A stretch of DNA of 24,000 bases from an uncultured Rhodocyclaceae bacterium (GTDB taxonomy: Bacteria > Pseudomonadota > Gammaproteobacteria > Burkholderiales > Rhodocyclaceae): NCBI GenBank assembly GCA_964607005.1, contig CAZSHO010000001.1, positions 98,457-122,456 on the forward strand, in the 5' to 3' direction. The notes beneath the pieces were generated by a model, which searched no databases, had not been told where the DNA came from, and was given only the letters and a program-made list of their open reading frames with translations. Shown here one piece after another: positions 2 through 23,653 of the stretch; positions within the stretch are counted from its first letter, which is position 1; the number at the start of each line of letters is the position of its first letter. The position numbers were made by a program, and so were the translations under genes.

Positions 2-703
2 CAGGCGGCCCTCAATCAACCTGTCGGTGACTTCACGCTGCTCGATCGTCGTGAAAATCCGGTACGGCTGGCCGATTATCGCGGCAAGCCCCTGCTGGTG
101 AGCTTCATCTACACGGGCTGCTTCGAAGTCTGCCCGACCACCACACGCAACCTGCAGAAAGTCGTCACCGATACCGTTGCCGTCCTCGGCACCAACCGAT
201 TTAATGTGATCAGCATCGGCTTCAACCAGCCTTTCGATTCACCAGCAGCCATGAAGGCCTTTGCCAGCCAGAACGGCATCGTTTTCCCGAACTGGGAATT
301 TCTCAGCCCTGCACCCGCCATCGTCAACAAACTGACACAAAATTTCGGCTTCAGTTATGTGCAGAATCCCTCCGGCTTCGACCACATCGTGCAGGTCACG
401 CTGGTGGATGCACAAGGGAAAATCTATCGACAAATCTATGGCGAGAAGCTGACATCCGACCAGCTGGTCGAACCAATGAAGCAGCTGATTGCCGGCGCAC
501 CGGTCGCGCAGAGCGGGGCCGTTGCCGACCTGTTCGACCGGGTGCGCATCCTCTGCTCGCGATACGATCCGAAAACCGGGGAATATCGTGTCAGCTACGG
601 GCTGGTTTTCGAAATTCTCGGCTTTCTCACCTTTCTCGGCTACATCGGCTGGTTTCTCTGGCAGGAGCTGCGCCAGCGCAGGTTCACGAATCCCGGCAAG
701 TAG
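2..703 (+). CDS. SCO1/SenC-family copper chaperone / thioredoxin-fold protein (5' end cut by window edge)
   Basis: The frame stays open back to position 2 (QAALNQPVGDFTLLDRRENPVRLADYRGKPLLVSFIYTGCFEVCPTTT). It has the SCO-type CxxxC motif (CFEVCP) and a downstream His (GFDHIVQV). The GTG at 98 in the ORF track is internal. A C-terminal hydrophobic helix is present (VFEILGFLTFLGYIGWFLW). Confidence 0.8.
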   Translation, partial: QAALNQPVGDFTLLDRRENPVRLADYRGKPLLVSFIYTGCFEVCPTTTRNLQKVVTDTVAVLGTNRFNVISIGFNQPFDSPAAMKAFASQNGIVFPNWEFLSPAPAIVNKLTQNFGFSYVQNPSGFDHIVQVTLVDAQGKIYRQIYGEKLTSDQLVEPMKQLIAGAPVAQSGAVADLFDRVRILCSRYDPKTGEYRVSYGLVFEILGFLTFLGYIGWFLWQELRQRRFTNPGK

Positions 704-774: not shown

Positions 775-2352
775 ATGGTGCATCCGCAGCCACGTCACTC
801 CTGGCATCCTCTCGCCGTGATTCAGCGCCTGGAAAGCTTCCTGGACCGCTTCTTCGGTGCCCGGGGCAATCCGCTGCGGCATCTGGGAGCACTGGGTTTT
901 TATTTTCTCTGGATCGCGCTCGCCAGCGGCATTTATCTGTTCATCGTTCTGGATACGGGCATCGAGAAAATTCACGCCTCGATCGAGTACTACACGCATG
1001 AGCAATGGTGGCTGGGCGGCATCATCCGCAGCCTGCACCGCTACGCCGCCGACGGGCTCGTCCTGGTCATGATCCTGCATGTCCTGCGCGAGCTCGCTCA
1101 TGGCCGTTTTCGCGGTTTTCGCAGCTTTACCTGGCTCACCGGAGTTCCGGTTATCTGGCTGGTCTATGCCTCCGGAATTGGCGGTTACTGGCTGGTCTGG
1201 GATCAGCTCGGGCTGTTCTCCGCGCTCGCCAGTGCCGAATGGTTCGACTGGCTGCCGTTCCTGCATAATGTGACAACACGCAATTTTCTGCCGGGCGTGC
1301 TGAATGACCGGTTTTTCACCTTGCTGCTGTTTCTTCATATCGGCATCCCGCTGCTCTTGCTGCTCGCCTTGTGGGCACATATCCAGCGCATTGCCCGGGC
1401 CGACGTCTTTCCTTCGCGCAGTCTCGCCGGCGGCACGCTCGCCATGCTGCTGGTGCTCGCCCTGATCAAACCCACTGTCTCGCACGGCAAGGCGGAGCTG
1501 TCACAACTGCCCTCCGTGCTGCAGATCGACTGGTACTACCTGTTCATTCACCCGTTGATGTACCTGACCTCCCCGGCCTTCCTCTGGTTTCTGTCTGCCG
1601 TGCTCACGCTGCTCCTGCTCGCCCTGCCCTTGCTGTCACCAGGGCGTGCGCAGGCACCGGTGGCGATCGTCGATCCGGACTATTGCAATGGTTGCCGTCG
1701 CTGCTTCGACGACTGCCCTTACAGCGCCATCACCCTGCGGCCCCATCCGGATCGGCCGGGGCACGAACTGGCCGGTGTGGATGCCCATCTATGCGCTTCC
1801 TGCGGCATCTGTGCAGGTGCCTGTCCTTCGTCGACGCCTTTTCGCAGCACTGACGCACTCGTCACCGGTATCGACATGCCCTCGCAACCGATCGGCGCAC
1901 TGCGCGCCGAAATGGAACGCAAGCTTGCCGCGCTCGAGGGTCCGGTTAAAATCCTGGTGTTCGGTTGTGATTGCGCCGTTGCGACCGCGCCTCTCGAAGA
2001 CGCGCAAACCGCAGTGCTGAGCCTTTTGTGTGTTGGCCTTTTACCGCCAAGCTTCATCGAATACGCCCTGCGCAGCGGTGCCGGCGGCGTGCTGGTGACC
2101 GGTTGCCGGGAAGGCAGTTGTGCCTACCGGCTGGGCAACCGCTGGATGGAAGAGCGCCTGGACGGCCAGCGCGAACCGCACCTGCGCCGCACCACCCCTC
2201 TTGATCGCCTGCGTGTCGTTCTCGCCGATGCTCATGAAATGAGCCAGCTCAAGGCGCAGCTCGATAAATTCCGCGAAGATTTGAATGTTTTGGACAAGAA
2301 TGGACAACACCCCCACACCACGCCCCCCAAAAGGATGACTCGACATGGTTAG
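775..2352 (+). CDS. Fusion protein: diheme cytochrome b (bc1/b6 N-terminal type) + 2x[4Fe-4S] ferredoxin + MvhD/FlpD-like iron-sulfur domain
   Basis: The N-terminal membrane domain has two His pairs spaced 14 residues apart, as in cytochrome b helices B and D (RSLHRYAADGLVLVMILHVL; FLHIGIPLLLLLALWAHIQ). Two CxxCxxCxxxCP motifs follow (CNGCRRCFDDCP, CASCGICAGACP). The C-terminus carries an MvhD-like signature (ILVFGCDC...LLCVGLLPPSFIEYALRSGAGGVLVTGCREGSCAYRLGN). No obvious SD precedes the ATG at 775, so the start is uncertain. Confidence 0.8.
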   Translation: MVHPQPRHSWHPLAVIQRLESFLDRFFGARGNPLRHLGALGFYFLWIALASGIYLFIVLDTGIEKIHASIEYYTHEQWWLGGIIRSLHRYAADGLVLVMILHVLRELAHGRFRGFRSFTWLTGVPVIWLVYASGIGGYWLVWDQLGLFSALASAEWFDWLPFLHNVTTRNFLPGVLNDRFFTLLLFLHIGIPLLLLLALWAHIQRIARADVFPSRSLAGGTLAMLLVLALIKPTVSHGKAELSQLPSVLQIDWYYLFIHPLMYLTSPAFLWFLSAVLTLLLLALPLLSPGRAQAPVAIVDPDYCNGCRRCFDDCPYSAITLRPHPDRPGHELAGVDAHLCASCGICAGACPSSTPFRSTDALVTGIDMPSQPIGALRAEMERKLAALEGPVKILVFGCDCAVATAPLEDAQTAVLSLLCVGLLPPSFIEYALRSGAGGVLVTGCREGSCAYRLGNRWMEERLDGQREPHLRRTTPLDRLRVVLADAHEMSQLKAQLDKFREDLNVLDKNGQHPHTTPPKRMTRHG

Positions 2353-2863
2353 CAAATCTCCCGTCAATCCGGCCGTACTGATCGGCCAGGTGCTGTTTTA
2401 CGGCCTGTTTGCCGTCATCATCGGCTATTTTTCAACGTCTCCCACCTTCACGCACATCGATCCTGGCCTGTCGTTGATCAAGCTCTCCTTCAGTACCCAG
2501 GCCGAGCCGGTGGGCGAGTGCCGCAACCGGACACCGGAAGAGCTCGCCAAGCTCGCACCGAATATGCGCGCACCGCGTATCTGCCCGCGCGAGCGCTCGC
2601 CGATCAAGGTCAGCATCAGCCTGGACGGCCAGCCGCTGTTCGAAGGCAGTGCACCCCCGGCCGGGCTGTCGAAGGACGGCCCCTCGACGCTCTACGAACG
2701 CTTTGAAGTCTCCGCAGGCAAGCATACGCTCTCGGTCAAGATGAACGATAACGTCAATATTCCCGGCTTCAATCATGTGCGCGAAGAAACGGTTGACCTG
2801 AAACCAGCGCAGATCCTCGTCATCGATCTGCGCAAGGACCGTGGCGGCATCATCTTTGAATGA
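2345..2863 (+). CDS. Small membrane-anchored protein of unknown function (one N-terminal TM helix plus a soluble beta-rich domain)
   Basis: The ATG overlaps the upstream stop by 8 nt (ATGGTTAG). Third codon positions are GC-rich. The N-terminal helix is VLIGQVLFYGLFAVIIGYF. There are two Cys (GECRNR, RICPRE) but no CxxCH and no CuA-type ligand set. Confidence 0.6.
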   Translation: MVSKSPVNPAVLIGQVLFYGLFAVIIGYFSTSPTFTHIDPGLSLIKLSFSTQAEPVGECRNRTPEELAKLAPNMRAPRICPRERSPIKVSISLDGQPLFEGSAPPAGLSKDGPSTLYERFEVSAGKHTLSVKMNDNVNIPGFNHVREETVDLKPAQILVIDLRKDRGGIIFE

Positions 2864-11060: not shown

Positions 11061-12656
11061 TCAGTGGCTGGTGCCCTCCGAACGGGTGATCTTGTTCCAG
11101 ACATTGTATTTACCGACCGGTTTGCACGCCGGGATGCGCTTCACTTCCTTCAGCGTCGCCGCATCAAAGACGATCAGCGCACCTTCCTGTTCCATCAGGC
11201 TCGCCAGCGCATAGCGGCCGTCCTTGGTGAATTCGACGTGCGCAAGTGTCTTGCCCGGTTCCGGACGCAGATGGGCGACAACTTCCAGCGTCTGCTTGTC
11301 GATCACCGTCAGGGTGTCCTTGTGTTCGCGGCTCATCATCGAATCGGTCCAGGCATAGCGGGAGTTCTCATGACTACGCATGAAAAATCCCGGACCGGGT
11401 GTCGGAATCTGCCGCACCGTCTTCCAGGTCTTCATGTCAATGACGCTGATGACGCCTTCTTTCAGATTCGGTGTCGCCATGACGCGGCGGCCCTGCCAGT
11501 CCCAGGTGATGCCCGAACCCAGATGCGGCATACCGGGCAGATCGAGTGTGGCGATGCTGCGCCGGACATCCAGATTCACCACCTGTCCCTTGCCGGCGCC
11601 CTGGCTCGCACCCATCACTTCCTTGTAATCCTGGGTGAAGAAGAAATCATCGAGAAAATCATCGACAATCGAACGGCGCGGATTGAGGAAACCCGGCACG
11701 AAAGCACCTTCACGGTATCGATAGTCATGGATATAGCCGGCGGGAATGTCCGGCGCCGTCCTGTCATAGCTGACTTCCCAGACTTCCTTGACGTCCTTGA
11801 GCGCGGCGACAAAGCTCTTGCGCGGCGCGGCATCATAGACGGCCGAGACGCGTGAGCTGCGCTTGCCTTCCTCCTCGCGCACCTCGAGAATTTTCACCGG
11901 ATTGAGATCGGCATCGAGGATTACCAGGGTATGCGGCAGATAATTGGCAACCGCCACATACTGGCCATCGCCGGAGACGGCGGCATTGCGCGTGTTGATG
12001 CCGGCGCGCACTTCGGCAACCATCTTCAGGTTCCACAAGTCGTACTTGGAGATCCAGCCATCGCGCGAGGCAAAGAAGACATAGCGCCCATCCGGTGTGA
12101 ATTTCGGCCCGCCATGCAGGGCAAAGCGCGAAGCAAAACGTGCAATCGGCTCGAGCTTGTCGCCGTCGAGAATCGTCACGTGGTGATCACCGCCTTCGAC
12201 CACGACGAACAGATTCATCGGATCGGCCGAAAATACCGGTCTGGCGGGAAGGCTGCCCGGTGCATGATGGATCACGTGAGAGGCGCGAATCTGCGCTTCA
12301 TCCCACTGCGGCATCGGCACCGGCGTGTAGAGGTAATCGGCGAGCGCCTGGATCTGCCCGGGCGTGAGCGTCTGCCGAAATGCCGGCATCTGCACGTTCG
12401 GACGACTGTCGCGGATCACCTTGAGCGCTTCGGGCTTACGCAGGCGCGCAAGATTCTCCGGCAGCAGGGCCGGCCCCATGCGGCCAAAACGATCGGCGCC
12501 ATGACACTCGGCGCAGTGCTGGCGATACAGTTCGGGCACCGTCTCGGCAGCGGTTGCAGAAGCATTCACCACAGAGAGGCAGAGACACAGGAAGAAAAGA
12601 AGATACCTGGCTGCCCTCTGTGCCGGTGTGTCTCCATGATGAAACAGGGTTTTCAT
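11061..12656 (-). CDS. nirN: NirN, cytochrome c + cd1-like beta-propeller protein (dihydro-heme d1 dehydrogenase)
   Basis: It starts at MKTLFHH, with an ATGA overlap onto the nirJ stop. It has a signal-like N-terminus, a CAECHG heme c motif, a cd1 propeller, and the conserved C-terminus GKYNVWNKITRSEGTSH. The ORF-track N-terminal 81 aa lie inside nirJ in another frame. Confidence 0.9.
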   Translation of the reverse strand: MKTLFHHGDTPAQRAARYLLFFLCLCLSVVNASATAAETVPELYRQHCAECHGADRFGRMGPALLPENLARLRKPEALKVIRDSRPNVQMPAFRQTLTPGQIQALADYLYTPVPMPQWDEAQIRASHVIHHAPGSLPARPVFSADPMNLFVVVEGGDHHVTILDGDKLEPIARFASRFALHGGPKFTPDGRYVFFASRDGWISKYDLWNLKMVAEVRAGINTRNAAVSGDGQYVAVANYLPHTLVILDADLNPVKILEVREEEGKRSSRVSAVYDAAPRKSFVAALKDVKEVWEVSYDRTAPDIPAGYIHDYRYREGAFVPGFLNPRRSIVDDFLDDFFFTQDYKEVMGASQGAGKGQVVNLDVRRSIATLDLPGMPHLGSGITWDWQGRRVMATPNLKEGVISVIDMKTWKTVRQIPTPGPGFFMRSHENSRYAWTDSMMSREHKDTLTVIDKQTLEVVAHLRPEPGKTLAHVEFTKDGRYALASLMEQEGALIVFDAATLKEVKRIPACKPVGKYNVWNKITRSEGTSH

Positions 12657-13795
12657 TTCAGCCCGATCTCCTCGTCGGTGAGATAGCAGCCCGGGTCTTC
12701 CGCCCAGGGGTTGCCCGTCAGTTGCAACGCACGCACGCGCGTGTTGCCATCGCAGATGTCGAAGTGGGCGCAGCCGGCGCAGCGCCCGCCGATCCGGCGC
12801 GGCTTGTTCTTCAGCCCGGCCATGATCGGGTCGGTGGTGTCTGGCCAGATTGCGGAGAAGGGCCGTTCGCGCACATTGCCCAGGGTGTGGTGCCACCACA
12901 TCGTGTCGGGGTGGACATTGCCGAGGTTATCGATGTTGGCGACATTCACACCGGAGGAATTGCCGCCCCACTGGACGAGTCTGGCGCGGATATGGGCGGC
13001 ACGCTCGGGAAAGTGCTTTTCCACCCAGTGGAGGAAATACACGCCGTCGGCATCGTTGTTGCCCGTGGTGAATTCCTTCTTCAGGCCGCGCTGCATATAG
13101 CTCCAGCAGGTGTCAAAGAGCAGGTCCATCGCCTGGCGCGTCATCTGGTGATGGGCATCATCCTTGCGATTCTTGTTGCCGCGGCCAGCATAGTTCAGAT
13201 GCGAGAAGTAGAAGCGGTCGATACCCTCGTCCTCGACCAGTTGCAGCAGCTGCGGCAGGTCCTGGACGTTGTCCCGCGTCAGGGTGAAGCGCACGCCGAT
13301 CTTCAGATCAAGCTCCCGGCACAGGCGGATGCCGGCGAGCGAGCGCTCGAAGGCGCCCTGCAGGCGACGGAACTGGTCATGCGTCTGGCGGATGCCGTCA
13401 AGGCTCACCCCCACGTAGTCAAAGTCAGTTGCGGCGATACGGCGGATATTGGATTGATCGATAAGAGTGCCGTTGGTCGACAGCCCGACATAGAAGCCCA
13501 TCTCCTTGGCGCGCCCGGCAATCTCGAAAATGTCCGGGCGCAGCAACGGCTCGCCGCCGGAGAGGATCAGCACCGGCACACGAAAGCGCTTGAGATCCTC
13601 CATCACCGTGAAGACTTCCTGCAGATTCAGTTCGCCGGCAAACTCCTTGTCGGCGGAAATCGAATAGCAGTGCTTGCAGGTGAGGTTGCAGCGGCGGATC
13701 AGGTTCCAGATAACCACCGGTCCCGGAGGATTGCGCTTCTCGCCCGGCGGCGTGGGATGGGCAATCTCTTCCATGTATTGGGAAATTCTGAACAT
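12653..13795 (-). CDS. nirJ: NirJ, radical-SAM heme d1 biosynthesis protein
   Basis: It has the CNLTCKHCY radical-SAM CxxxCxxC motif and a C-terminal Cys cluster (GGRCAGCAHFDICDGNTRVRA). The preferred start is ATG 13795 (MFRISQYM), with GGAGA 7 nt upstream. The ORF track uses the TTG at 13801. Confidence 0.9.
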   Translation of the reverse strand: MFRISQYMEEIAHPTPPGEKRNPPGPVVIWNLIRRCNLTCKHCYSISADKEFAGELNLQEVFTVMEDLKRFRVPVLILSGGEPLLRPDIFEIAGRAKEMGFYVGLSTNGTLIDQSNIRRIAATDFDYVGVSLDGIRQTHDQFRRLQGAFERSLAGIRLCRELDLKIGVRFTLTRDNVQDLPQLLQLVEDEGIDRFYFSHLNYAGRGNKNRKDDAHHQMTRQAMDLLFDTCWSYMQRGLKKEFTTGNNDADGVYFLHWVEKHFPERAAHIRARLVQWGGNSSGVNVANIDNLGNVHPDTMWWHHTLGNVRERPFSAIWPDTTDPIMAGLKNKPRRIGGRCAGCAHFDICDGNTRVRALQLTGNPWAEDPGCYLTDEEIGLK

Positions 13796-13910
13796 GCTCA
13801 ATTCTCCGCCAGGCCGCGCCGGGGAGGGCTGCGGTCATCAGCATGAAAGTCGCACAGCGACTGAACCGTTGTCACCCCTTTCCTCGGGGAAGGGGACGGA
13901 GGACAGATCG

Positions 13911-14408
13911 TCATATTCCGATGCGCAGTCCGGTTTTCTTCAGGATCCGGCTGCTGTAGAGAACATCATGGGTGCGGCACGCCGATCCGAGCAGGCCGGC
14001 GATTTCCAGTACCTGTCCCTCAACGTCCTCCCGGCTGCGGCCATGCACCATGGCGAACAGATTGTAGGGCCACAATGGCAAGGCGCGCGGGCGGTGATAG
14101 CAATGTGTGACGAAAGGCAGACGCCCTACCGCCGCGCCGAGTGTATCGATGCGTTCATCCTCGACATCCCAGACGCTCATGCCGTTGGCAACATAGCCGA
14201 GCGCATAGTGGTTGGGTACCGCGCCGATGCGGCGGATGATGCCCTCTTCAAGCATGCGCGCCAGACGCAGTTTGACTTCTTCCGCGTCGATACCGAGACG
14301 ATCCGCCAGTGCCGCATAGGGGCGTGGCACCAGCGGCAAACCGCCTTGCGTCTCCAGGATCAGGCGGCGATCAAGCCCGTCGAGCGGTTGCACCATGCCT
14401 GCCTTCAT
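13911..14408 (-). CDS. nirH: NirH, AsnC/Lrp-like siroheme decarboxylase subunit
   Basis: The start MKAGMVQPLDGLDRRLILETQGGLPL has an ATGA overlap with the nirG stop. It has Lrp/AsnC-like NirD/L/G/H family motifs (VPNHYALGY, VTHCYHRPR..WPYNLFAMVHG). Confidence 0.85.
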   Translation of the reverse strand: MKAGMVQPLDGLDRRLILETQGGLPLVPRPYAALADRLGIDAEEVKLRLARMLEEGIIRRIGAVPNHYALGYVANGMSVWDVEDERIDTLGAAVGRLPFVTHCYHRPRALPLWPYNLFAMVHGRSREDVEGQVLEIAGLLGSACRTHDVLYSSRILKKTGLRIGI

Positions 14409-14848
14409 GCCGCCAGCTTCATCCCGACAAAATATTCCTTCAACTTCGGAAAGGCATGAACCTTCAAACCCGTAGCGCATTCGATCTTTTCAATCGCTGC
14501 CGTAATCCCTGCGGGTGCCTCGGTGGCGAGCACGAACCACATGTTGAGCGTGTGCTCGCGCCGATAGTTGTGGGCGACTTCGGGCAGCGCATTGACGCAG
14601 GCAGCGATCCGGTCATAGTCGGCCTCCGGCACGACCAGTGCCGCCAGTACAAAGGCACCGCCCATGCGCTCGACCTGGAACATCGGGCCGAAACGCGTCA
14701 GCGTTCTGGTCTCCAGCAGCCGTTGCAGGCGCATGATCAGGACCTCTGCGGTCAGGCCCAATGACTCGGCAACTTCGCGGTAGGGCTCATCGCTGAGCGG
14801 AAAGCCGCCCTGCACGGCATTGATGATGGCGCGATCCGTCTCATCCAT
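14405..14848 (-). CDS. nirG: NirG, AsnC/Lrp-like siroheme decarboxylase subunit
   Basis: MDETDRAIINAVQGGFPLSDEPY...EVAHNYRREHTLNMWFVLA. It overlaps the nirDL stop by 8 nt and sits between nirDL and nirH. Confidence 0.85.
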   Translation of the reverse strand: MDETDRAIINAVQGGFPLSDEPYREVAESLGLTAEVLIMRLQRLLETRTLTRFGPMFQVERMGGAFVLAALVVPEADYDRIAACVNALPEVAHNYRREHTLNMWFVLATEAPAGITAAIEKIECATGLKVHAFPKLKEYFVGMKLAA

Positions 14849-15833
14849 GTGCGGCTTCGACCTGCGGGATGTAGAGGGCGCCGCGCTGCTTGAAGCGGCG
14901 GCGCGAAAAAAGCACTTCGTAACGTACTGCTTCGAGCCCCAATCGGTCGCGCAGACGCACCACCGCAGCCTCGACCTCGGTGCGGCTACGCCCGTGAATC
15001 ATGCAATAGAGATTGTAGGGCCACTGTGGCAGATGGCGGCGACGCTTGTAGCACAGGGTTACTTCGGGTTCGGCGGCGAACAGGCGGCCGATGCGCTCGG
15101 CCTCGTGGTCGGGCAGGTCCCAGACAACCATGGCGTTGGAGACGAAGCCCAGTTCGTGATGCCGCACGATGATGCCAAAGCGCTTGATGAGACCCTCGCC
15201 ACGCCAGGCCTTGATCATGGCAATCACTGTGGATTCATCCAGACCGGCCTGTTCGGCAAGGCGAGCGAAAGGACGTGACACCAGCTCAAGACCGTATTGC
15301 AGCACGCCAAGCAGGCGCTCCTCATCGAAAGTCAGTGTTCGCAACACGGCGCCATCGATGCGCCGTGCGGCATAGGGCGACTTGCAGACACCCGCCAGAT
15401 CGAATCCGAGGTCGATGTAAAACTCGTATTCGAGCGGCAGGGAGAGTACCGGATAGCCCAGCTCGCGGCCGATATCGGCAAGCGCCCCGTCCAGATGTGC
15501 CTGGTCGGGTGCAGTGACGACGAACCACAGGTTGTAATGATGCTCGCGCTCGTAATTGTGATTGACTTCGGGCCGGGCACTCACTTTGCGCGCCAGCTCG
15601 ACAAGCTGCGGCGGCGGCACGGCCACCGCCGCCAGGGTGCTTGCGCCGATGCGGCGCGGTGCGAGCACGGCGCCCACACGGCTCACCACACCGCAGGCCT
15701 GCAGCCGGCGCAATGCCGCCAGGACCGTCTCCTCATCGATGCACAGCCGCCAGGCCAGTTCGGCGAATGGCTCCGAATCGAGCGGGAAGCCGCGCTGGAA
15801 TTCATTGACCAGGCGAAAATCAAGCGAGTCCAT
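14841..15833 (-). CDS. nirDL: NirD-NirL fusion (NirDL), siroheme decarboxylase
   Basis: 330 aa made of two tandem AsnC/Lrp-like modules (FRLVNEFQRGFPL...EVNHNYEREHHYNLWFV and LLGVLQYGLELVSRPF...TLCYKRRRHLPQWPYNLYCMIHG). Confidence 0.85.
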   Translation of the reverse strand: MDSLDFRLVNEFQRGFPLDSEPFAELAWRLCIDEETVLAALRRLQACGVVSRVGAVLAPRRIGASTLAAVAVPPPQLVELARKVSARPEVNHNYEREHHYNLWFVVTAPDQAHLDGALADIGRELGYPVLSLPLEYEFYIDLGFDLAGVCKSPYAARRIDGAVLRTLTFDEERLLGVLQYGLELVSRPFARLAEQAGLDESTVIAMIKAWRGEGLIKRFGIIVRHHELGFVSNAMVVWDLPDHEAERIGRLFAAEPEVTLCYKRRRHLPQWPYNLYCMIHGRSRTEVEAAVVRLRDRLGLEAVRYEVLFSRRRFKQRGALYIPQVEAAHG

Positions 15834-15842
15834 GCGCTTTCC

Positions 15843-17012
15843 CTAGAAGCCGATACGATGGGCGCGGCTGGTGAAGAAAATGCCGGAGGGTCCGGACACG
15901 GGGAGTTGTGCCAGACGGGCAAAGCTTGACGTGTCGTAGATCACCACGCGGTTATCGTCGCGTGCCGAGATCCACACCTGATCGCCGCGCGGCGTGAATT
16001 CCATATGAAGTACCGCCTTGCCGGGGGCAAGCGTCTGCACGATCTTCTGCTCGAAGGTGTCGATCACCTGCACCTGGCCATAATCCGGAAAGGCGAAGTT
16101 CACCCAGATCTGGCGGCCATCCGGGCGCGCCATGACGAACACCGGCTGTCCCTTGACGGCAATGCGCCCCACTTCCTGCCAGCTGGTCGTATCCACCACC
16201 AATACTTCATGACGCCCGATCGCCGGCAAATAGGCGCGGTTGCCGGCCACCGCCCAGCCACGCAGATGCGGCATCTTGAACACCGGCAGCTTCTCCTCCC
16301 CCCGGCCGTAATTGGCCAGGATCCGTTTCACGCCCTGCTGTGGCTGCCACAGGTCCAGCAAGGCCAGGCCATCCTCGCCGAACAGGCCGGCGATGTAATA
16401 GCGGCCATCGGGAGTGATCAGCGCATCGTAAGGCTGTCTGCCGATCGACTTGAATTTCGTGATGTGCGGCTGGCGCGGATCGGTCAGATCAGCCACCCAG
16501 ATCTCGCCGGCATCAAAGAGGGAGAAGACGAATCTATTGCCCGGTGCATCGGCAAGCCCGACCACCTTGGAAAACTGCCGGCCATCGCCGTAGGCGGCCG
16601 GAATGTCGGCGAGCAGTTCCAGCGTGCCGGCATCGAACACCTTGACACCACCGGGCTGGTAATTCTGTGCGGCGACCAGCCGTCCGTCCTGCGAGATGGC
16701 ACCACCGATGGAATTGCCGGCCTGCAGGATGCGCCGCTCGATCTTTTGTGCAAGCACATCGACCTTGCTCAGGCCCCCATCGCGGCCAAACACATAGGCA
16801 TAGCGTCCATCACGCGCATAGACAACGGAAGCATGGGACAGATCGCCCAGTCCTTCGACCTCACCCAGCATTGTGCGCGCAGAGGTATCGACCACCGCCA
16901 CGGCACCACGGGCGCGCTCGATGACCACGCCCAGATCGCCCGTACCGCGCAGTGCCGGTGTCGCACAGGCGGCAAGCAGCAGGGCGGACAGGAGCGGGAG
17001 CAGGAGTTTCAT
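15843..17012 (-). CDS. nirF: NirF, cd1-like beta-propeller heme d1 biosynthesis protein (lipoprotein-type signal)
   Basis: MKLLLPLLSALLLAAC lipobox. Propeller repeats are homologous to NirS/NirN, and the conserved C-terminus is GIFFTSRAHRIGF. The ATG at 17012 overlaps the nirC TGA by 1 nt; a GTG at 17015 is also possible. Confidence 0.9.
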   Translation of the reverse strand: MKLLLPLLSALLLAACATPALRGTGDLGVVIERARGAVAVVDTSARTMLGEVEGLGDLSHASVVYARDGRYAYVFGRDGGLSKVDVLAQKIERRILQAGNSIGGAISQDGRLVAAQNYQPGGVKVFDAGTLELLADIPAAYGDGRQFSKVVGLADAPGNRFVFSLFDAGEIWVADLTDPRQPHITKFKSIGRQPYDALITPDGRYYIAGLFGEDGLALLDLWQPQQGVKRILANYGRGEEKLPVFKMPHLRGWAVAGNRAYLPAIGRHEVLVVDTTSWQEVGRIAVKGQPVFVMARPDGRQIWVNFAFPDYGQVQVIDTFEQKIVQTLAPGKAVLHMEFTPRGDQVWISARDDNRVVIYDTSSFARLAQLPVSGPSGIFFTSRAHRIGF

Positions 17013-17359
17013 CACTTTGTCTCTTCAGGAAAGCCGTGTCTGAGCTGACGGACCACCCAGTCCGCCTCGTTTTCGTTCATGAAACGCTTCCAGGGCGGCA
17101 TCGCCGTCCCCGGACGGCCGTTCAGAATGGTGTCGCGCAGCGATCCGGCCGGCTTGTCGCGCAGGGCCTGGGGCAGCAGCGAAGGCCCGAGCCCGCCCTT
17201 GAGTGTCAGGCCATGGCACGAACCACAATCCTCGCGCACCATATGCACCAGCTCCTGTGCGCGTTCAGGCGACGGGTCGGCCGCCCGGGACAGCAACGGA
17301 ACCCACTGTATCGCAAGCAGCGCGAAAAGAATTGGGCCCGTCTTCAGATTGGCGTTCAT
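17012..17359 (-). CDS. nirC: NirC, monoheme cytochrome c (c55X)
   Basis: 115 aa with a signal peptide (ILFALLAIQWVPLLSRA) and a single CGSCHG heme c motif with PPW downstream. It sits between nirS and nirF. Confidence 0.85.
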   Translation of the reverse strand: MNANLKTGPILFALLAIQWVPLLSRAADPSPERAQELVHMVREDCGSCHGLTLKGGLGPSLLPQALRDKPAGSLRDTILNGRPGTAMPPWKRFMNENEADWVVRQLRHGFPEETK

Positions 17360-17410
17360 CGTTCCGCTCAGGATGCCTGTAATTACCCCGGGAAGCTTTG
17401 ACTTTTCTCA

Positions 17411-17445
17411 ATTTTTAAAACAAGCGGGGGCCCGCAGGCCCCCGC
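17411..17445 (-). terminator. Rho-independent terminator/attenuator downstream of nirS
   Basis: On the minus strand, GCGGGGGCC-tgcg-GGCCCCCGC forms a 9-bp GC stem followed by TTGTTTTAAAAATT. It starts 27 nt after the conserved nirS stop codon at 17472-17474. Confidence 0.8.
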
Positions 17446-17471
17446 TCGATTCGGCTTGCGCCGATGCCGGA

Positions 17472-19329
<1,858 letters not shown>

Positions 19330-19370
19330 TTAATCTGGAGCAAATCAGTCAAGCTTTCATCTGTCCGGCA

Positions 19371-21194
19371 TCAGTGTTCTTCGGCACTCACGGACAGGCC
19401 GGGGGAAGCCTTCCCTGCTTCGTGGCCGCTCTTGATGCGTTGCTCGCGCCGCTTGCGCCGTTCGATCAGCGGCGGACACGTCTTGTCGTCGTAATAGATG
19501 ACCTGACAGTCCAGACAATAGTGGCATTCGTTGGCATTGATCTCTCCGGTCGGGCGGATCGCCCGCACCGGGCACTGGCTGGCACAGACCTGACAGGGCT
19601 TGCCGCATTCCTTGCGCCGGCGCAGCCACCATTCGAACAACCGGAAGCGGCCCGGAATGGCCAGAGCCGCCCCGAGCGGACAAAGGTACTTGCAATAGAA
19701 TTTGCGATTGACCGCCGCCAGACCAATGAGGATCAGCGCGTACAGGATGTAGTGCCAGTCACGCTGGAAGCGCATGGCGATCACGGTCTTGAACGGCTCC
19801 ACCTCGGCGAACCAGGCAGCCTGGGCAATCGACTGCAGCGAGACACCGAAGAGCAGGATGAGGATGATGTACTTGAGCGCAACGAGCCGCTCATGCACGG
19901 CATTGCTGAATTCGAACTGCGGCAGATTCAATTTGCGCGAAGCGACAAGGATCAGTTCCTGCAAGGCGCCAAACGGGCAGAGCCAGCCGCAATACACCCC
20001 ACGCCCCCAGAGCAGGAGCGTCATCGCCACGAATCCCCAGAGGATGAAGAGCATCGGATCAATGAGGAAATGCTCCCAGCGGAAGCCGCCCATCACCGAG
20101 TTGGTGAAGGTCAGCACATTGATCACCGACAGCTGGGCGAGGCCATACCAGCCGAGGAAGAAAAGTGAATAAACATGAAAACCATAGCGTACCCGCTTGA
20201 GTAATTTCGGGCGCCTGGCCAGCCAGTCCTGGAAGATCAGAATGATGAACAGCGTCGCCAGGCCCAGCACCAGCACGGTGATCTCGAAGACGCGGTTACG
20301 CCAGATGCCGATCCACATCGGCTCGTCCTCTTGCAGCGCCGTCACAACTGACGATGGCCATGAAGTCTGGGCAGGGCCGCCTACCGACTCGGCCCGCGCT
20401 GGTACGGCGGAGGTCCTGCCGGACATCGGTTGTTCCAACGATTTTTCCGGCGACTTTGATGAGGCTTCCGGTCCCGATACCGCCTGCGCCGGACGCTGGC
20501 GTGCCGGAGCCGGCTTGGCTTGCGGGCGCTTTACCGGCTCTTCGACCGACGGCAGCGGCCCGGTCACCTGTTGCGACCCCGCCGGCCCGGGCAGGAGCAC
20601 CGGTTCACTGGTTGAAGCGGGTCCGGCTTTCGCTTCCGGGGCGACTTCCTGCGCCACCGCAGAGGGAACGGGAGGAACAATCCCGCGTGCAGTCGCTACC
20701 GCCCGGGCCGAGCGCATCACGGTGGAATTGATGACCATCACCGTGATGGTGGCGCCGGAAATGCCATCGACGGCAATATGCCCGGAGCGGGGCGCACCAA
20801 TGATCACCTTGTCGAAGGCATTCTTGCCCTGATACTGCGCGGCATAGCGTGCCAGGCGTTCATGGGTGATGCCGACCGCCAGAATCGGCTCATCGTGATT
20901 GACAATCGTGAGCCCCGCGATACGCCCGCTCAGATCCAGCCCGACCAGCACATTGATCGGCTTGCCGGAATACGCCGGGATGCGCAGCACATCGTCGCTC
21001 AGGAACACATAGCCGATCGTTTTGCCATCCTGGAAAACGGCGGCCGAGGGAGGAGACCCCTCGAAGTCCCCATATCTTTCGGCCTGCGGGAAAATCGAGT
21101 GCAGCTGAGGATAGGTCGTGGACAATTCGGCCGCCTGCGCCCATCCGCCCAGGCAAATGGCCAGCAGTCCGAAGAGGAATCGTCTGATGATCAA
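19371..21194 (-). CDS. nirI: NosR/NirI-family membrane-bound FMN-binding iron-sulfur regulator/electron donor
   Basis: It has a periplasmic FMN_bind-like motif (VDGISGATITVMV), TM helices with CPFGALQE and CKYLCPLGA motifs, and a C-terminal ferredoxin-like region (CGKPCQVCASQCP, CHYCLDCQ). The ORF-track start (21350) overlaps the tRNA. I propose the TTG at 21194, which gives the signal peptide MIIRRFLFGLLAICLGGWAQA. The start is uncertain. Confidence 0.75.
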   Translation of the reverse strand: MIIRRFLFGLLAICLGGWAQAAELSTTYPQLHSIFPQAERYGDFEGSPPSAAVFQDGKTIGYVFLSDDVLRIPAYSGKPINVLVGLDLSGRIAGLTIVNHDEPILAVGITHERLARYAAQYQGKNAFDKVIIGAPRSGHIAVDGISGATITVMVINSTVMRSARAVATARGIVPPVPSAVAQEVAPEAKAGPASTSEPVLLPGPAGSQQVTGPLPSVEEPVKRPQAKPAPARQRPAQAVSGPEASSKSPEKSLEQPMSGRTSAVPARAESVGGPAQTSWPSSVVTALQEDEPMWIGIWRNRVFEITVLVLGLATLFIILIFQDWLARRPKLLKRVRYGFHVYSLFFLGWYGLAQLSVINVLTFTNSVMGGFRWEHFLIDPMLFILWGFVAMTLLLWGRGVYCGWLCPFGALQELILVASRKLNLPQFEFSNAVHERLVALKYIILILLFGVSLQSIAQAAWFAEVEPFKTVIAMRFQRDWHYILYALILIGLAAVNRKFYCKYLCPLGAALAIPGRFRLFEWWLRRRKECGKPCQVCASQCPVRAIRPTGEINANECHYCLDCQVIYYDDKTCPPLIERRKRREQRIKSGHEAGKASPGLSVSAEEH

Positions 21195-21318
21195 GAGACA
21201 AGCCTCATGCCGGATGACCGTCCATGGGGCCGGAAAACCTTTCGAGAATCCGCGCCGATCGCATCTGAAGAGAAGAGAGTCTGTCGTATGTCTTGCAGGA
21301 CTGCCTGCGCTGCATTCA

Positions 21319-21405
21319 TGGTGCCGGGAGGGGGACTCGAACCCCCACACTGTCGCCAGCGGCGGATTTTGAGTCCGCTGCGTCTACCAATTCCGCCATC
21401 CCGGC
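21319..21405 (-). tRNA. tRNA-Leu (anticodon CAA), 87 nt with long variable arm and encoded CCA
   Basis: The minus-strand sequence is GCCGGGATGGCGGAATTGGTAGACGCAGCGGACTCAAAATCCGCCGCTGGCGACAGTGTGGGGGTTCGAGTCCCCCTCCCGGCACCA. The acceptor stem GCCGGGA/TCCCGGC, the anticodon stem GCGGA/TCCGC with loop CTCAAAA, and the T-arm GGGGG-TTCGAGT-CCCCC all pair. Confidence 0.95.
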
Positions 21406-21522
21406 TGAATGAACCCCATGCCTGCCAAGTCGTATTCCGCCACGCCGCCAGGCGGGCGCGTAGAATGCGGGCCAAAAAAGAGCCGGCATTATCCCGCATC
21501 CACCCACTTCAAATCAAACGAA

Positions 21523-23653
<2,131 letters not shown>

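Follow-up and report, generated by a model that had tools for sequence, protein, structure and literature searches.

In the genomes of ammonia-oxidising bacteria, the proposed heme-copper nitric oxide (NO) reductase sNOR is encoded in the layout norSY-senC-orf1 (PMC4964001, PMC4940428). Nitrosomonas europaea follows this order with NE0684 (norS), NE0683 (norY), NE0682 (senC) and the unnamed NE0681, and under O2 limitation the four genes were upregulated 10.8-, 5.5-, 2.7- and 2.2-fold, respectively (PMC6967387 supplement). Here we analyse a 24,000-nucleotide (nt) stretch of DNA from an uncultured Rhodocyclaceae bacterium (contig CAZSHO010000001.1; "the window" refers to this whole stretch), in which a single gene encodes a fusion of a cytochrome b, a 2x[4Fe-4S] ferredoxin and an MvhD-like domain, for which we use the label FUS. 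The gene stands at the orf1 position, directly after senC/SCO1 and downstream of a CuA-bearing subunit II and a Tyr-less subunit I. On the strength of sequence and gene context, we tentatively read FUS, together with the small protein encoded next to it (p172), as a membrane subunit that transfers electrons specifically for a heme-copper enzyme module of the sNOR type in denitrifiers. A published survey, in which sNOR is a tyrosine-less, CuA-containing relative of the B family, makes no mention of a FUS-like partner (PMC11214002).

A second body of published work concerns Accumulibacter, in which FUS relatives also occur. Its genomes are without norBC and few carry norZ, and the 'ba3' operon of strain UW-1 shows high expression in the anaerobic phase and predicted FNR regulation (PMC6446978). 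It has also been proposed for this organism that quinol is re-oxidised by a 'novel quinol reductase' while the tricarboxylic acid (TCA) cycle runs anaerobically (PMC4930944).

Architecture and conservation of FUS

Against Pfam, FUS matched Cytochrome_B (PF00033) over residues 37-205 (E 4e-14; 53 bits against a cut-off of 27), Fer4_6, Fer4_7 and Fer4 over residues 297-353, all exceeding their curated cut-offs, and FlpD (PF02662) over residues 410-506 (E 6e-13; 49 bits against a cut-off of 22). FlpD is the delta subunit of the methyl-viologen-reducing hydrogenase. The FUS-family profile, when searched against the PDB, recovered cytochrome b6 (E 9e-20), the MvhD chains 9sw2_D (E 5e-15) and 5odc_D (E 2e-13), and the C-terminal ferredoxin domain of HdrA (5odc_A residues 562-630; E 9e-11). 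Among NCBIfam models, the N-terminal part resembled cytochrome b6 and ExtP, and residues 292-510 were collinear with the last 210 amino acids (aa) of HdrA2, an HdrA-MvhD fusion (E 3e-25); the HdrA2 profile itself (NF040770) scored 88 bits against a cut-off of 1100, with only positions 567-775 of 777 covered.

The residues expected to bind cofactors fall into the same three modules. Two bis-His heme pairs, H88/H102 in helix B and H188/H202 in helix D, each have a spacing of 14 residues, and the ferredoxin domain carries the motifs C304xxC307xxC310xxxC314P and C340xxC343xxC346xxxC350P. The Cys motifs of the MvhD part are GC398DC, LLC419VG and TGC444REGSC449AYRLGN, of which C419, C444 and C449 line up with the MvhD motifs MCSG, GCH and GDC, and C398 lies in the expected N-terminal strand. 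On the outer side are a b6-like cd region and a Qo-type xDW[YF] motif; this PEWY-type ef-loop motif takes the variant form I-D252-W253-Y254 in FUS. At the position of the heme cn-binding Cys of b6, FUS has His36 and distant relatives have Tyr.

FUS belongs to a family that is common, automatically annotated and functionally uncharacterised. A word-indexed search returned more than 120 clusters of full-length homologues of 500-550 aa with an identical Pfam set, mainly from Rhodocyclaceae, Burkholderiales, Sulfuritalea and Azospira, which go by the automatic names 'hydrogenase iron-sulfur subunit' or 'Cytochrome b6'. When one genome per species was scanned, at least 560 confirmed relatives emerged, some possibly partial, including those of Candidatus Accumulibacter phosphatis UW-1, Dechloromonas, Propionivibrio, Sulfuritalea and Azonexus, and an exhaustive HMMER search of 1.8 billion representatives gave 479 clusters (50% identity) at E<=1e-30, many of them full-length at only 28-35% identity. 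In an alignment of 150 sequences (38-73% identity), the four heme His, D252-W253, all eight ferredoxin Cys and C398, C419, C444 and C449 were invariant; a more distant set (26-41% identity) retained the four His, the eight ferredoxin Cys and three of the MvhD Cys. Nothing specific to FUS was found in the literature searched, where its sole trace was a table row listing RME88945.1 as cytochrome b6 + DMSOR_beta-like + FlpD (PMC8756737).

An earlier sequence-only reading of the window had described the open reading frame (ORF) as an unusual fusion of three modules with an MvhD/FlpD-type C-terminus. The Pfam domains, all over their cut-offs, and the NCBIfam and PDB profile matches bear out both the fusion and the identity of its C-terminus, whereas 'unusual' was an overstatement for a family of 479 clusters and several hundred species genomes. 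The motifs it quoted also stand, apart from C400, the second Cys of its 'GCDC', which is not conserved, and the His pairs, whose conservation it had put forward as a test, are invariant. The possibility it raised that two genes had been joined by a frameshift is ruled out by the hundreds of collinear full-length homologues of the same architecture, and the ORF can be taken as a single genuine gene.

A structure model of FUS was computed with AlphaFold2 (AF2) from a 150-sequence alignment that included the distant long form described below, and reached a mean predicted local distance difference test score (pLDDT) of 90 and a predicted template modelling score (pTM) of 0.87; an earlier model from a 20-sequence alignment (pLDDT 58) was discarded. 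The accepted model has six transmembrane (TM) helices, A-F (aa 33-58, 78-108, 114-141, 178-203, 215-231 and 267-287), a small ferredoxin domain (297-355) and an alpha/beta MvhD domain (373-508). In Foldseek searches of the PDB, the top 50 matches were all cytochrome b or b6, with target-normalised TM-scores of 0.56-0.59 over ~285 columns against bc1 cytochrome b, and no structure in the PDB spanned full-length FUS. By homology to cytochrome b, the N-terminus of FUS probably lies inside. Because the cytochrome b N-terminus is on the negative side of the membrane and six helices follow, the iron-sulfur (FeS) and MvhD parts are predicted to be cytoplasmic, which is where the sequence-only reading had expected a topology prediction to place them. 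The loop charges obey the positive-inside rule and match this arrangement, with 3, 3 and 4 Arg/Lys residues in the inner segments BC, DE and the N-terminus and 1, 1 and 2 in the long outer loops. Since the ferredoxin domain directly follows helix F, it would be proximal to heme bH and the MvhD cluster distal.

The C-terminal 220 aa of FUS, collinear with the end of HdrA2 and best matched there by MvhD structures, could be taken to mark an MvhD connector for an HdrA-like flavoprotein or an Mvh-type hydrogenase, with FUS as a heterodisulfide-reductase-like membrane anchor. The sequence-only reading had looked in this direction and had itself remarked that the window holds no HdrA-like gene. That observation is correct and extends further, as no HdrA, HdrB/C, CCG-domain or hydrogenase gene, group 3c [NiFe]-hydrogenases included, was found in the window or in the annotated neighbourhoods examined. 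The conserved partners of FUS are instead heme-copper enzymes, SCO1 and p172, and the hosts examined are denitrifying Proteobacteria, so that we regard such a connector role as extremely improbable.

Gene neighbourhood of FUS and p172

The protein encoded immediately downstream of FUS, p172, has one N-terminal TM helix and a beta-rich domain with a mostly conserved Cys pair (C59, C80) and the motifs ECRxRTPEELAKLPPNMR...CPRER...DG.S. Neither Pfam nor the PDB yielded a relative, profile search included, and its alignments contain no conserved metal-ligand set. p172 adjoined or was fused to FUS in 81/82 loci. In distant relatives its homologue is joined to the C-terminus of FUS to give a long form of ~690 aa (P0245, P0269, P0310, P0343); of the 150 best cluster representatives, 48-50 have this fusion, and it recurs among the 4197 clusters that a long-form profile gave at E<=1e-20, with thousands of proteins of about this size and the best matches listed being ~660-710 aa long. 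Because it is fused to FUS in distant relatives, p172 is probably a subunit of FUS, and because its helix follows the cytoplasmic MvhD domain in the fusion, its own domain is predicted to be periplasmic. p172 contributes one more TM helix and a cofactor-less domain on the periplasmic side. A few proteins (P0298, P0365) apparently combine cytochrome b with p172 and have no FeS part. A thiol-relay role of the Cys pair toward SCO1 was considered and dropped, since the pair is common and not universal (it is missing in P0310 and not invariant in the distant set).

FUS is not part of a bc complex. No Rieske or c1-like partner occurs among the genes listed for the window and the annotated neighbourhoods, in which no search aimed at Rieske proteins or cytochrome c1 was made, and the c-type cytochrome genes that lie near FUS in some loci do not resemble a c1-type partner.

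Synteny was counted over 87 distinct loci, in a sample biased to Rhodocyclales and Burkholderiales. SCO1 lay directly upstream of FUS in 71/85 loci, a CuA-type subunit I upstream in 66/73 and a CuA-type subunit II upstream in 65/71. Three further genes recurred within the flank: a second cytochrome b fusion, here labelled cytbFNR (59/67 loci), a divergent heme-copper-oxidase subunit-I-like gene, here labelled HCOL (53/66), and CtaA, the heme A synthase (36/63). The gene set is kept although its order is shuffled, as in FUS-p172-HCOL...cytbFNR, FUS-p172-cytbFNR...HCOL (other strand) and cytbFNR-p172-FUS-HCOL. More distant contexts preserve part of it. In four of five long-form contexts, these four from Gammaproteobacteria, a small ORF, subunit II (~183 aa), COX1 (~570 aa), an optional CyoE and SCO precede the FUS-p172 fusion, which is directly followed by a hemerythrin gene in three of the four and has nirS nearby in two. 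The four contexts also have a COX1-like gene of ~455 aa close by, beside a 60-62-aa gene in two of them, and CtaA nearby. In the fifth, CtaA, nirS and a gene for a Crp/Fnr-type regulator adjoin the fusion, while SCO1 and a COX1 gene lie on the opposite strand. On the Defluviimonas plasmid NZ_CP156080.1 (Alphaproteobacteria), subunits II and I come first, followed by heme o synthase, SCO, FUS (under the annotation 'cytochrome b N-terminal domain-containing protein'), p172 and hemerythrin, and neither HCOL nor cytbFNR was present within 9 kb. The core conserved across Alpha-, Beta- and Gammaproteobacteria is a CuA heme-copper enzyme, SCO1, FUS and p172, and we call it universal because it is common to these distant contexts.

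The abundance of assembly genes in this neighbourhood raises the question of whether FUS, and cytbFNR with it, is a biogenesis or maintenance factor that donates electrons for heme-copper cofactor handling, be it to heme A synthase, for copper reduction as by the polyferredoxin CcoG, or for reductive activation of the kind that NosR has been suggested to provide for N2O reductase. Mitochondrial heme A synthase depends on a ferredoxin and a ferredoxin reductase. Consistent with such a function are the frequencies of SCO1 and CtaA given above, the CyoE gene that lies between subunit I and SCO in some loci, the composition of cytbFNR as a ferredoxin reductase plus a [2Fe-2S] ferredoxin, and the NosR/NirI-like membrane polyferredoxin encoded in the window (Table 1). 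It is, however, not obvious why a biogenesis factor should have two conserved TM hemes, a Qo-type motif and a partner domain in the periplasm; CtaA is missing from the flank of some loci, and the incomplete conservation of the p172 Cys pair makes a relay to SCO1 unlikely. Taken together, these points make a biogenesis role quite unlikely in our estimation.

Table 1. Coordinates of FUS, its domains and the other features of the window
Feature	Position	Strand	Remarks
SCO1/SenC copper chaperone, 3' part	2..703	+	PF02630; start lies upstream of window
FUS	775..2352	+	single ORF, ATG start, 525 aa
FUS cytochrome b membrane domain, aa 33-287	871..1635	+	AF2 helices, Foldseek, profile match
FUS heme-ligand codon H88	1036-1038	+	
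FUS heme-ligand codon H102	1078-1080	+	
FUS heme-ligand codon H188	1336-1338	+	
FUS heme-ligand codon H202	1378-1380	+	
FUS Qo-type DWY motif, D252-Y254	1528-1536	+	in cytochrome b domain
FUS two-cluster [4Fe-4S] ferredoxin domain, aa 297-355	1663..1839	+	Fer4 profiles, invariant Cys
FUS MvhD/FlpD-like domain, aa 373-508	1891..2298	+	PF02662; putative [2Fe-2S] ligands C398, C419, C444, C449
p172	2345..2863	+	orphan 172-aa protein; start overlaps FUS stop by 8 nt
HCOL, divergent heme-copper-oxidase subunit-I-like, 465 aa	2860..4257	+	COX1 PF00115, E 7e-12
Acidic ORF, 62 aa	4254..4442	+	overlaps HCOL stop; no Pfam match
Polytopic membrane protein, 383 aa	4439-5590	-	no Pfam/NCBIfam match
DUF2249 protein, 86 aa	5617..5877	-	Pfam
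cytbFNR, 642 aa	6044..7972	+	Cytochrome_B + Fer2 + FAD_binding_6 + NAD_binding_1 (Pfam)
nirS	11061-12899	-	
Radical-SAM NirJ-like gene	12653-13801	-	
Three NirD/L/G/H-type genes	13911-15833	-	
NirF-like gene	15843-17015	-	
Second cytochrome c-d1 protein	17649-19298	-	
NosR/NirI-like FMN_bind + Fer4_5 membrane protein	19371-21350	-	
queA + tgt	21409-23653		beyond nir cluster

Stop and start codons overlap between FUS and p172, p172 and HCOL, and HCOL and the 62-aa ORF, and we take the four genes to form an operon because of these overlaps, with p172 presumably coupled to FUS in translation. The spacer ahead of FUS (704-774; 72 nt) is AT-rich for the genome (…CAAGCTTTATAATCATTCACTGATATAAGCC…), and neither a clear Shine-Dalgarno sequence nor a canonical FNR box was seen in it; scans for consensus promoters and terminators gave results at chance level only.

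Genes upstream of the window were read from contigs with identical DNA and from related contigs. Subunit II (~180 aa) has a complete CuA motif, H-x34-C-x3-C-x3-H-x2-M. Subunit I (~561 aa) has GHSSQQ at the site of the cross-linked Tyr of oxygen reductases, and hence no active-site Tyr, and keeps the helix VII HH; its NCBIfam match to SoxB is weak and far under the family cut-off. Two CtaA genes lie further upstream. The complete SCO1/SenC is a protein of 293 aa with a CxxxC motif (L001:1586-2467, identical DNA). It has, besides its N-terminal signal/anchor, a C-terminal hydrophobic helix (…VSYGLVFEILGFLTFLGYIGWFLWQEL…), which is unusual for SCO proteins.

In HCOL, H75, H353 and H355 still stand at the heme-ligand positions and H222 at that of the first CuB His. 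A profile-profile alignment places V270-A271 at the helix VII His-His position, so that two CuB His are missing, and an invariant Y272 adjoins this pair, with an invariant E281-H282 ~10 residues further on; the active-site Tyr at H+4 is also absent (F226). hhalign related HCOL to the neighbouring CuA-type subunit I with a probability of 99%, and its profile found no sequence match in the PDB. The published survey presents gNOR as the first case of a family that has exchanged even a single active-site His (PMC11214002), so that HCOL may be an undescribed family of the heme-copper superfamily. The small gene next to it recurs, in that a 60-62-aa gene adjoins an HCOL-like gene in distant relatives too (L005, L088, L089).

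The gene for cytbFNR begins 3.7 kb downstream of FUS. The membrane cores of cytbFNR and FUS are 40-48% identical and share the four heme His, that of cytbFNR having the motif DWF, and the soluble part of cytbFNR is BenC-like (E 1e-64), with a plant-type [2Fe-2S] ferredoxin followed by FAD and NAD(P)H domains; by sequence, cytbFNR is a paralogue of the FUS membrane core. In 2006 Garcia-Martin et al. reportedly described an Accumulibacter cytochrome b/b6 that carries FeS, flavin and NAD(P) domains in one fusion, and the 'novel cytochrome b/b6 / quinol reductase' of that organism appears, from its architecture, to be cytbFNR and not FUS. Divergent from cytbFNR is the pair of genes for the 383-aa membrane protein and the DUF2249 protein, which is kept in the closest relatives (15 and 13 loci); its context suggests an NnrS-like role for the membrane protein. 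Farther downstream come nitronate-monooxygenase-like, nirS and heme d1 biosynthesis genes, with the cd1 nitrite reductase cluster spanning 11061-21350 on the minus strand.

A possible electron conduit and its direction

In the reading that we tentatively prefer, the chain [2Fe-2S] - [4Fe-4S] - [4Fe-4S] - heme bH - heme bL/Qo-like pocket would form a wire across the membrane, linking a cytoplasmic reductant to the quinone pool and/or to the adjoining heme-copper enzymes. Electrons would run from the cytoplasm outward, which is the least certain step, and the system would supply a heme-copper enzyme that reduces NO (or O2 at low levels), or hold it in the reduced state, without recourse to the bc1 complex. 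Outward flow is favoured because the paralogue cytbFNR has a BenC-type NAD(P)H input module on the same core, because the path would be downhill at each step and helped by the membrane potential, and because precedents exist for electron flow in this direction in the diheme Bacillus-type succinate:quinone reductase (SQR) and the NADPH oxidases. The nirS and heme d1 genes of the window supply a supporting context of denitrification or low O2, as do the anaerobic expression and predicted FNR regulation of the Accumulibacter 'ba3' operon and the upregulation of NE0681 under O2 limitation. That FUS is a wire through the membrane, or connects the quinone pool with cytoplasmic FeS chemistry, had already been proposed in the sequence-only reading and is reasonable, although the HdrA-like partner around which it was framed has no gene nearby. 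The informative partners in or next to the window (p172, HCOL, cytbFNR and the CuA enzyme with SCO1) were not connected with FUS in that reading.

Several observations weigh against a conduit to the heme-copper enzyme. The neighbourhoods examined offer no candidate for the cytoplasmic donor to the MvhD domain. The invariant Asp-Trp and the b6-like cd region point to quinol/quinone chemistry more than to a passive wire and are compatible with flow in either direction. CuA is normally fed by a periplasmic carrier, FUS and p172 have no periplasmic redox cofactor, and a direct step from heme bL to CuA or heme may be too long. cytbFNR and HCOL are missing in some FUS-bearing lineages, and they are not obligate partners for this reason. 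Finally, we infer the correspondence between FUS and nitrifier orf1 from gene position only.

The conserved DW[YF] motif and b6-like cd region are also what one would expect if electrons ran the other way, in an inward redox loop of the NarI-NarH or HdrE-HdrD kind, in which quinol would be oxidised at the outer Qo-like pocket and both of its electrons passed through the two hemes and the FeS chain to a cytoplasmic acceptor. A diheme membrane b with a cytoplasmic FeS chain is indeed the design of NarGHI and HdrDE. The acceptor might be, for example, a hemerythrin-type di-iron protein encoded next to FUS/p172, with a function in NO/O2 detoxification or FeS repair, and a hemerythrin-family gene starts 9-136 nt downstream of FUS/p172 in 4/6 non-Rhodocyclales contexts. 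The same gene, however, was found in just 4/77 Rhodocyclales loci and is missing from the window, which has a DUF2249 gene instead, and hemerythrin-like genes accompany NO reductase genes in general. On energetic grounds, the oxidation of ubiquinol through bL-type hemes would be uphill unless a Rieske cluster or a similar high-potential centre took the first electron, and inward electrons would oppose the membrane potential; moreover, wherever relatives of the paralogue's BenC-like module have been characterised, the module serves for electron input. We therefore consider an inward loop unlikely.

The same energetic argument touches the published Accumulibacter proposal, since, given an outer Qo-like site, the quinol-to-NAD(P)+ direction would take cytbFNR uphill in redox potential and against the membrane potential. 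A workable form of that proposal (PMC4930944) would be a Rieske-less bifurcation of the Qo type, in which the first quinol electron enters a high-potential heme-copper branch for NO/O2 reduction and the second passes through bL, bH and the FeS chain to the level of ferredoxin via MvhD, or to NAD(P)+ via the FNR paralogue. No other scheme makes use of every conserved element, from the Qo motif, the two hemes and the FeS wire to the FNR paralogue and the obligatory linkage to a terminal enzyme of very high potential. The scheme is nevertheless wholly inferential: no high-potential acceptor can be placed at the pocket, p172 being without metal ligands, inward transfer would again oppose the membrane potential, and BenC-type modules normally oxidise NAD(P)H. 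Bifurcation is, in our judgement, very unlikely.

The significance of the FUS module rests on sequence and synteny. sNOR-type enzymes are predicted to be major N2O producers, and a dedicated cytochrome b-FeS subunit would fill a gap in what is known of their electron supply; an sNOR-type module could likewise explain NO handling in Accumulibacter genomes, which are without norBC. The 'novel cytochrome b/b6' fusion, to which models of phosphorus-removing bacteria appeal (PMC4930944), would gain a genomic frame, namely a heme-copper/NO module rather than the TCA-cycle context. A bc1-type cytochrome b without Rieske protein and with an FeS wire at the Qi position would also be a natural experiment on Qo-site chemistry, and bifurcation, if true, would lead from the quinone pool to low-potential reductant without reverse flow through complex I in denitrifiers, polyphosphate accumulators and possibly nitrifiers.

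Comparison with known systems

FUS resembles the cytochrome b of bc1 and b6f complexes in its fold, the His pairs of helices B and D, the b6-like GYxLxWDQ cd region and, in the variant form xDW[YF], a PEWY-type motif, but differs from it in having only six TM helices and a fused FeS chain at the inner face instead of, or besides, a Qi site. With HdrA2 of Methanosarcina it shares the order of 2x[4Fe-4S] followed by MvhD; there is, in contrast, no FAD/thioredoxin-reductase domain, HdrBC or hydrogenase, and the module hangs on a membrane cytochrome b. The paralogue cytbFNR differs in its cytoplasmic part, which is NAD(P)H-FAD-[2Fe-2S] where FUS has 2x[4Fe-4S]+MvhD, and is narrower in range. The proposal for Accumulibacter was set in the redox balance of the anaerobic TCA cycle (PMC4930944), whereas the setting here is a heme-copper cluster.

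In NarI-NarH, HdrE-HdrD and diheme SQR, two TM b hemes link an outer quinone site to a cytoplasmic FeS chain, as they would in FUS. The cytochrome b fold of FUS (PF00033) is unrelated to NarI, HdrE and SdhC, however, its FeS part is fused, and it has no identified catalytic subunit. A precedent for a bc-type cytochrome b homologue working with a heme-copper subunit I and without Rieske protein is Sulfolobus SoxABCD, in which these parts are SoxC and SoxB. Both FUS and cytbFNR have weak NCBIfam matches to SoxC, far under the cut-off (for FUS against NF041076, 20 bits and E 3e-4, below a cut-off of 740); SoxC has no FeS extension, and subunit II at this locus, unlike that of SoxABCD, has CuA. 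With the nitrifier norSY-senC-orf1 cluster the gene order is identical (subunit II, subunit I, SenC/SCO1 and one further gene, whose place FUS takes in Alpha-, Beta- and Gammaproteobacteria), a likeness of gene position.

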